Below, in pieces: positions 1 to 17,394 of a stretch of 21,098 nucleotides of DNA. A model generated the notes under the pieces. That model searched no databases, was not told the origin of the DNA, and saw only the letters and a program-made list of their open reading frames with translations. Numbering within the stretch: the stretch's first letter is position 1; every line of letters begins with the position of its first letter. The position numbers and the translations under genes were made by a program. The stretch is from Clostridia bacterium (GTDB taxonomy: Bacteria; Bacillota; Clostridia; UMGS1883; UMGS1540), in assembly GCA_045533905.1 (NCBI GenBank), contig JAZSIR010000015.1, positions 1 through 21,098 of the forward strand, written 5' to 3'.

Positions 1-4
1 AGAT

Positions 5-187
5 ATGCAAATAAAAGCTCCTGCCGTTCCTTACAAGGAAAGAATAGTAAATCGAATAAGAGAAAAATATTCTGTAAATGACGAGCTGGCAATATTGCGG
101 CAGAGAGACACGAAACCGGAAGAATTTGAGGAATACAATTCTTTTGTCGAGAAGGTCAAAGCCGAGGAAAGAAACAAGTTTGGTTGA
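5..187 (+). CDS. Small hypothetical protein, phage-like (probably 5'-truncated by the window edge)
   Basis: The frame is open to the window start. The sequence IREKYSVNDELAILRQRDTKPEEFEEYNSFVE resembles small gut-phage proteins (recognition from memory, not a search). Followed by a terminator. Confidence 0.6.
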   Translation: MQIKAPAVPYKERIVNRIREKYSVNDELAILRQRDTKPEEFEEYNSFVEKVKAEERNKFG

Positions 188-341: not shown

Positions 342-415
342 GATTAAATTTGTAACAATACGACCGGTGAACCTTCTTGTTTAAAGTGTTTTTTTTACTC
401 CTTAAATTTCCTTTA

Positions 416-1474
416 TCACATCGTAAGCGCCTGTTTGCCGCAAGCACGGCATTTTTGGAAGCATTTATCGAGATTGAAGGCCACGCGCGGCAGATAGCCA
501 AAATCTTCTAAAAGCGTAAAAAGCGGAAAGAAAATGGCCATCGGCGGCAGCATCACGGAAACAACCCACGCTGTGACGCGATATGCGCCGAACACGAGCA
601 TATCCCGAAGCCACAGAGGAAGAAAGCAAAGCAGCTCGTAAAGCGGCGCCTCAAGGCCAAATAAAAGCTTAGACAGCCACGCCGAAGGGTAATTTGCCCC
701 TTCCAGTGTAATCCAGAAAATACCCATCAGAAGCAAAAACATAAGTGGAAATCCAAATGTTTTTCCCGTGAGCCATTTATCGATTTTTCTGTCTCTTTCA
801 ACTATCCCCTCGTGCGGTGTGCGCAGAACCTCTCGGCTTACTTCTTCCGCAAGACGTACAATCTCCGTAATATCCGGATTTTCTTCCCCGAATGAGAATC
901 CTTTCGGGGGCGTTTCCGCCACCTGCTTGACAGCGTCAAGTAGCCCTGAAAGGCCTGTACGCTTTCGCGCGGATGTGCCGACCACGGGCACACCAAGTTT
1001 TTCCGAAAGCGCCGGAAGGTCTATTTCGATATGTTTCTTTTTTGCTTCATCTAAAAGGTTTACACAAACGACCACGCTTGAAGTCGTGGCCAGAATCTGC
1101 AGTGCCAAAATGAGATTTCGCTCAAGACACGTGCCGTCGCATACCACAACAGTAACATCTGCCTCGCCTTCTAAAATAAAACCCCGCGTGACCTCTTCTT
1201 CGGCAGAATGCGCGGAAAGTGAGTAGCTGCCGGGTAAATCGACAATGATATACCCCTGATTTTCCGCATGCGCGTACCCCACGGCACTTGTGACCGTTTT
1301 CCCCGGCCAGTTTCCTGTGTGTTGCCGCATACCGGTAAGCGCATTAAAAACTGTACTTTTTCCTACATTTGGATTGCCCGCCAAGGCGACGACTACGTCC
1401 TGCGGGTCTTTCTTATTTATGTCAATACCGCAGTCGACTGCGGCTTTTCCGACGGATTGATTTGTAAGTCCCAT
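416..1474 (-). pseudogene. feoB: Ferrous iron transporter FeoB, 5' fragment (GTPase domain plus first membrane segments), interrupted
   Basis: GTPase motifs GNPNVGKS, TGNWPGKTV, DLPG and NLLD. Membrane motif LLEDFGYLPRVAFNLD. Stops at 352 aa (KQALTM*) just before the expected Gate motif (C)MGFGC; full FeoB is typically 600+ aa. Confidence 0.88.
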
Positions 1475-17319: not shown

Positions 17320-17394
17320 GTCTCGGTGGCCTAAAGGATAAGGTAATGGATTCCGGTTCCATTGATGCGGGTTCGATTCCTGCCCGGGACGCCA
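17320..17394 (+). tRNA. tRNA-Arg(CCG)
   Basis: Cloverleaf: acceptor GTCTCGG/CCGGGAC, D arm GCCT/AGGT with A20, anticodon arm ATGGA-TTCCGGT-TCCAT (CCG at 17353-17355), T arm GCGGG-TTCGATT-CCTGC, discriminator G, encoded CCA. Confidence 0.96.

Follow-up and report, generated by a model that had tools for sequence, protein, structure and literature searches.

The feoB locus and its left junction

The window, meaning the whole stretch of 21,098 nucleotides analysed here, is the entire contig C22 of a Clostridia bacterium assembly of 1.57 Mb that is 95.5% complete (labelled G000). Towards its left end lies a feoA-feoB operon on the reverse strand. The first gene, feoA (positions 1478 to 1702), matches PF04023 with an E value of 6e-18 and is followed by the 5' half of feoB (416 to 1474), whose 352 amino acids comprise the GTPase domain, the helical region and the start of the first Gate domain, which is cut after profile position 39 of 104. 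As a sequence-only reading of this DNA had stated, the frame is open to GKQALTM and then meets TGA (418-416) and TAA (415-413), and the product is the N-terminal half of FeoB (FeoB_N profile, E 8e-57). The host codons of feoB occupy 1474-419, and the stop codon comes from the inserted element. The same reading was right that clostridial FeoB runs on past the break, since intact relatives read MCMGFGCNAAG after ALT and continue for about 275-280 further residues. Membership in the FeoB family is indicated in the window by FeoB_N, the Gate start and the upstream feoA, and the homologs of the intact allele carry complete FeoB_N GTPase, Gate and FeoB_C domains. Two more full-length feoB genes are present in the genome, on contigs C13 and C15.

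Positions 1 to 418 form the AT-rich left end of an element that runs off the contig edge. The reported abrupt change in composition at the junction is borne out, with GC falling from 0.50 in feoB to 0.33, and none of the 406 other 418-nt windows of the contig is as low (minimum 0.39). The 3' end of a small ORF (2 to 187, forward strand) points at the junction and has no Pfam or PHROG match below E 0.05 and none among phage records. Over bases 1-173 it shares 96% identity with a small ORF from the tail/lysis region of a separate prophage of the same genome, integrated at the tmRNA gene (contigs C20 and C3). Further in, a 26-nt inverted repeat (270 to 348; arms 270-295 and 323-348, 85% complementary) marks the non-coding end of the element, and no recombinase remnant is evident in 188-418. 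Because bases 1-173 copy a gene of a prophage that is complete at its tmRNA site, the feoB element must be a separate, mostly unassembled and partly phage-derived one. The suggestion that it is phage-like is plausible insofar as 173 of the 418 visible bases copy a prophage gene, but this copy of one gene end is all the prophage coding sequence that is visible, and the attachment arm is nearer to those of an island-type recombinase clade than to phage-type arms.

The tyrosine-integrase prophage on C20 and C3 was itself considered as the feoB element and rejected, as its own tmRNA repeats bound it. It is a complete prophage in the tmRNA gene (C20:1-17489 and C3:98418-119622) and contains a giant ORF of 3247 aa and an AT-rich patch with a truncated second amidase.

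Anatomy of the attachment site

The crossover dinucleotide is the TG at 419-420 (reverse strand), the last two bases of the Met codon in ALTM|CMG, as deduced from the comparison of attL and attR in two relatives (G008 and G006) and from the symmetry of the attP arms about TG. The earlier placement at the TG of the following Cys codon is ruled out by G008, whose ends read ATG-G at attL and T-TG at attR. The element-side (P') arm (401 to 418, reverse strand) contains the TGA and TAA stops and is identical at 17 of 18 positions to the arm of L040, with related arms in G202, G081 and L039; when the L040 arm was searched against both strands of the 1.57 Mb with up to two mismatches, 401-418 was the sole match. 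The host (B) half (421 to 445, reverse strand), which codes for CGKQALT, was delimited by alignment to the intact attB of relatives, and its outer limit is approximate.

In seven pairs the element arms are inverted repeats about TG, with symmetry at 16, 15, 14, 14, 11, 10 and 9 of 20 positions, that is, at 14-16 of 20 in four of the seven; the lowest value is that of G202, which probably carries two stacked elements. The weak dyad TTA-TCACATCG-TAA that had been pointed out at 413-426 is present and its centre, 419-420, is the crossover dinucleotide, but taken alone it is at chance level, as 398 of the 21,084 14-mers in the window (1.9%) have such 3-bp-ended dyads. The window thus contains a 2-bp crossover with a host half and a foreign half, and the inverted-repeat symmetry is seen in the relatives for which both ends are available. 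On these grounds the junction is almost certainly the attL of a large serine recombinase (LSR) element, whose recombinase and 3' feoB half would lie on unassembled DNA.

The missing 3' half

A motif scan, tblastn, blastn and an HMM search of the genome for the feoB 3' half returned the two other feoB types only. The genome encodes four LSRs (on C7, on C8 and two on C11), with at most 35-40% identity to the island clade found at the same site in relatives; none of the four adjoins a feoB piece in this assembly, and the island clade itself is absent. The absence of a 3' half or recombinase, which had been named in advance as speaking against an insertion, is thus formally what this assembly presents, yet linked core genes are gone as well. 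Both tcdA and spoIIID, which lie downstream of feoB in most of the genus, are absent from the assembly (spoIIID is present in 20 of 21 relatives), and so are radA, rho, ftsY and spoIID, which come next in G005 and G007 and were named from reading of the sequences. Because this block of linked core genes is missing alongside, we attribute the absence of the 3' half and recombinase to an assembly gap. Among the assembled contigs from eight runs none covers 400-430, which is evidence neither way; the exact species-level junction was found in no metagenome contig, and neither an excised circle nor an empty site for this species was seen in assembled contigs.

Two further observations concern these genes. 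The LSR on C7 (1952-3304, L034) stands alone amid housekeeping genes in nine of nine genus genomes at 71-92% identity; it is conserved like a core gene and is 38-44% identical to the phage integrases at feoB. The spoIIID gene of three relatives (G006, G015 contig C17 and G013 contig C59) is itself divided in two or cut short near codon 35-43; in G006 the pieces lie at C112:1689-1829 and C118:20593-20724, the 3' one has an LSR as its neighbour, and the split feoB is about 1 kb away.

The same break in relatives and viral contigs

The same crossover is used in 10 other genomes (G006, G008, G041, G081, G086, G131, G187, G202, L039 and L040). Relatives combine the identical break with a serine recombinase and a start-less 3' half at the far end, which strongly supports the site-specific insertion that had been proposed. 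In a sample of the order, this feoB subtype occurs in 52 of 87 genomes and is intact in 45 and split in 7. The splits fall at the position seen in the window (site 1) in G000, G006, G008, G041, G081 and G086, and at a second site about 38 codons further on in G017; within the genus, three of nine genomes are split. Across the class, 72 of 150 scored genomes have the subtype (a weak paralog match in G144 was left out) and 7 are split, at site 1 in G000, G131, G187 and G202 and at site 2 in G017, G098 and G163. Contig breaks near the site in the intact G004, G117 and G155 were counted neither as splits nor as excision evidence; in G117 and G155 the junction is intact where the contig stops. Scanning the species collection with a pattern yielded five loci, namely the contigs of G006, G008 and G041 and the new L039 and L040.

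Viral contigs extend this distribution. Eleven viral loci contain the 3' half, of which seven begin at site 1 behind foreign DNA (four of them represent one phage lineage), three begin at site 2 and one is uninterrupted. Eight viral contigs are broken at the bases used in the window, comprising 7 of the 11 viral loci and L110. In L101, elements at both sites flank a 110-base piece of feoB. A third site, immediately ahead of the GTPase-domain motif TGNWPGK, is used in the viral contigs L103 and L110 (by a prophage with another LSR), and L110 is split both there and at site 1. Neither the arm of the window nor its attL pattern occurs in the viral contigs. A 19-nt arm pattern gave 23 matches in metagenomes, 21 of them unrelated and 2 of them feoB junctions of the L040 type.

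The split 3' halves are 58-82% identical to intact alleles, similar to the 66-83% among intact alleles, and the insertions could not be dated because dS is saturated. All eight split 3' halves examined are full length and free of stops. Excision on paper gives an open frame in all seven relatives with both ends, which mainly tests decay of the halves because the join was placed at the deduced crossover.

Recombinases and cargo of the feoB elements

The recombinase had been proposed to be of the serine or tyrosine kind; in relatives it is a large serine recombinase and not a tyrosine one. The elements of relatives contain a cognate LSR with resolvase, recombinase and Zn ribbon domains. One island-type clade (40-66% identity) lies beside att in G006, G008, G041, G086, G202, L039, L040 and L101, and a second, phage-type clade lies at attR in L092, L093, L095, L100 and L102. 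The L040 recombinase has no counterpart in the viral contigs and is at most 35% identical to phage records. Island-type elements range from 2.2 kb in G008, with a DNA-alkylation-repair gene and the LSR, to about 25 kb in G006, with polysaccharide genes, while the prophage contigs at site 1 contain repressor, terminase, baseplate and lysis genes. The same LSR clade is found either at attL pointing against feoB (L040 and the attL of G202) or at attR pointing with feoB (L039, G041 and G086), so over evolutionary time the element has reversed its orientation with respect to the TG core. The stop codon of the recombinase falls inside the att arm in L040 and G202.

Three of the seven complete island-clade LSRs have lost the coiled-coil region and kept the last strands, with 52-87 residues after the zinc ribbon compared with 167-186 in the others. 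The in-frame deletions are seen in L023:14477-15706 (G006), L024:2621-3973 (G008), L051:5152-6483 (G202) and L054:2574-3953 (G163), the last judged by length (459 vs 525 aa). The coiled coil was apparently lost at least two independent times at site 1 and once at site 2. In a Listeria integrase, deletion of the coiled coil is described as allowing attL x attR excision and impairing integration, with modest activity in vitro (PMC5499577), and the LSRs lacking it are candidate natural excision-only enzymes. The elements with arms nearest to that of the window (L040 and the attL of G202) have full-length enzymes, so the loss is not to be assumed for the copy in the window.

Core genes have been captured by some of these elements. 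The sole glgC of G017 over the cut-off sits between the feoB halves, and the sole clpB of G202 lies on the element side of attR. The cargo between the halves includes a complete glycogen operon in L027 (G017), a collagen-like protein and a glycosyltransferase in L053 (G098), clpB and pilus-like genes in L051/L052 (G202) and a polysaccharide synthesis cluster in L023/L028 (G006), the names other than glgC and clpB being given from reading of the sequences.

CATA motifs occur upstream of the LSRs of several relatives. A mother-cell-like motif before the G006 and G008 recombinases overlaps a perfect sigmaA promoter of a divergent gene, which mostly accounts for its conservation, and a mother-cell promoter for these two LSRs was downgraded for this reason. 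The recombinases of L040 and G202, closest by arm sequence, are preceded by sigmaA-like motifs. Promoter support for timed expression of the recombinase is weak.

A probably sporulation-associated feoB paralog

A predicted sigmaK-type promoter lies at 1739 to 1766 on the reverse strand, with a -35 element AGCC (1766-1763), a spacer of 16 nt and a -10 element CATATCTT (1746-1739), 44 nt before feoA. The pattern C[A/C]-N16-CATATNNT occurs 40-45 nt upstream of feoA in nine of nine genus genomes, with a variable spacer. A looser form of it is found before 7 of 789 other ORFs and before neither of the other feoB genes, and motifs resembling it stand ahead of dpaA, cotJ and sigK in this genome. In Clostridioides difficile, the feoA-feoB pair CD1518-CD1517 falls to 0.05 when sigK is mutated, and its mapped promoter is of the same RCA-16-CATA form (PMC3789822); it bears no Fur-box mark in the table of another study (PMC6311696). 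By gene pair and promoter form it is a candidate counterpart of the operon in the window.

The subtype is present in 68 of 118 spoIVA-positive genomes and in 4 of 32 spoIVA-negative ones, with a p value of 5e-6 that overstates the association because the genomes are related. In Vescimonas it is annotated beside sporulation genes. Control of this feoAB by sigmaK, as predicted from these features, is probable, and the paralog in the window looks sporulation-specific. It is dispensable for sporulation in many lineages, since 50 of the 118 spoIVA-positive genomes are without it, and selection to rebuild it may therefore be weak.

Proposed excision in the mother cell and its alternatives

The best explanation, to which we assign a probability of about 60%, is a skin-like intervening element that is excised in the mother cell to rebuild feoB. 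An LSR would have recombined attP with attB at the Met-codon TG, with the element arm supplying the stop, so that before excision only the 352-aa FeoB, without most of its membrane domain, could be made. Vegetative cells would carry the truncated and probably untranscribed gene, and growth would be served by the two other full-length feoB genes on C13 and C15. Recombination of attL with attR at a late stage of the mother cell would restore feoB for iron uptake during spore maturation, and the element would stay in the spore DNA. Timing of the excision is likely because transcription of this feoB copy is predicted to be confined to the late mother cell.

A less probable account is that the LSR elements simply settle in a third, dispensable feoB because its conserved motifs offer them a safe landing site, with the gene off while occupied and excision occurring only on prophage induction or transfer, without developmental timing. 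The two other full-length feoB genes, the 50 of 118 spoIVA-positive genomes that lack the paralog, the occupation of site 1 by prophage contigs that contain repressor, terminase, baseplate and lysis genes and the scattering of split alleles among intact ones in the tree speak for this account. It sits less well with the state of the genes and enzymes, as all eight split 3' halves examined are free of stops and truncations, and the halves remain intact where core genes have been captured or the element has shrunk to 2.2 kb. Moreover, 3 of 7 complete island-clade recombinases are without the coiled coil that efficient integration requires according to the Listeria work (PMC5499577), and among the matches listed, which are not a systematic survey, the other two feoB types show no splits. 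The captured glgC and clpB and the reduction to 2.2 kb in G008, both with intact halves, suggest long residence, and such signs favour timed excision over mere occupation of a landing site; intact halves could instead reflect recent insertion.

It is improbable that feoB is a naturally split transporter whose 3' half is translated alone from an ATG recreated at attR, which would make excision unneeded. The A-TG at attR does allow a start at MCMGFGC in L039, G041, G081, G086, G131 and G202, and an in-frame upstream ATG exists in G131 and G187, but G006 has CTG and G008 TTG at that position, the cut falls within the Gate domain, the halves lie 2-25 kb apart behind unrelated cargo and 45 of 52 alleles in the order sample are intact. 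An assembly chimera of feoB with a stray phage fragment, for which one could cite the end of the contig 418 bases on in a repeat shared with another prophage, is very unlikely because the next 18 bases match the arm of an independent element at 17 positions, uniquely in the genome, and 10 other genomes are broken at precisely this base.

Returning to excision in the mother cell, a broader version can be put forward as a tentative proposal only. The sporulation-specific feoB may be a class-wide hotspot in Clostridia with three sites, split in about one-tenth of its carriers, at which iron loading of the spore is gated by excision; some elements may have been domesticated by independent coiled-coil deletions into natural excision enzymes that work without a directionality factor and have lost the ability to spread.

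Relation to known intervening elements

The closest published parallels are skin in sigK, excised by SpoIVCA in Bacillus subtilis and by CD1231 with the directionality factor CD1234 in C. difficile, and vfbin in spoVFB (PMC10747680, PMC5595907). As described there, an LSR element splits a late mother-cell gene and precise excision restores the frame, as it would for feoB on paper. In contrast to these targets, feoB is an iron-transporter paralog rather than a regulator or spore enzyme, it has three sites used by unrelated recombinase clades, and the timing of excision is a prediction. The gin element in gerE of Bacillus cereus ATCC 10987 is described as an island of non-phage type whose cargo varies, and its target gene likewise belongs to the sigmaK stage (PMC5595907). 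A prophage occupies gerE in another species according to the same source, so that prophages share a site with islands at feoB as they do at gerE. Whereas gin has three recombinases and GirX, the island-type feoB elements mostly have one recombinase, in some cases without the coiled coil. SPbeta in spsM and yin in yabG (PMC4191935, PMC10747680) are cases of a sporulation gene occupied by a prophage or similar DNA that has an LSR at one of its ends, and the element in the window also ends in a phage-derived gene; unlike in those cases, its phage nature is indicated by 173 bases, and its arm groups with island-type elements. Convergence of diverse LSRs on one conserved coding site also resembles the target-gene clusters reported by Durrant et al. 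(2022; PMC10083194).

Neither feoB nor ferrous transport is named in the main text and searched supplements of Durrant et al. (2022; PMC10083194), and feoB is absent from the text of PMC5595907 and PMC10747680. A literature search for feoB in connection with recombinases or integration, which did not extend to Abe et al. (2013, Mol Microbiol), brought up no paper that names this gene as such a target. The gene would thus be a new target of an already known kind of element, putatively of the skin, gin, vfbin or yin type. If so, a transporter joins the few published sporulation genes that DNA excision restores, and attention is drawn to a little-studied FeoB paralog of the spore stage, one widespread among gut Clostridia. 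Insertions of this kind would also account for the annotation of such feoB genes as pseudogenes. In addition, several serine integrases that are unrelated to one another and share a single defined attB become available, and the natural variants without a coiled coil offer a direct test of the laboratory model of integrase directionality.

Elsewhere in the window, a tRNA-Arg(CCG) gene is located at 17320-17394, and the right end of the contig (20839-21098) shares a 65-base overlap with the end of C13.
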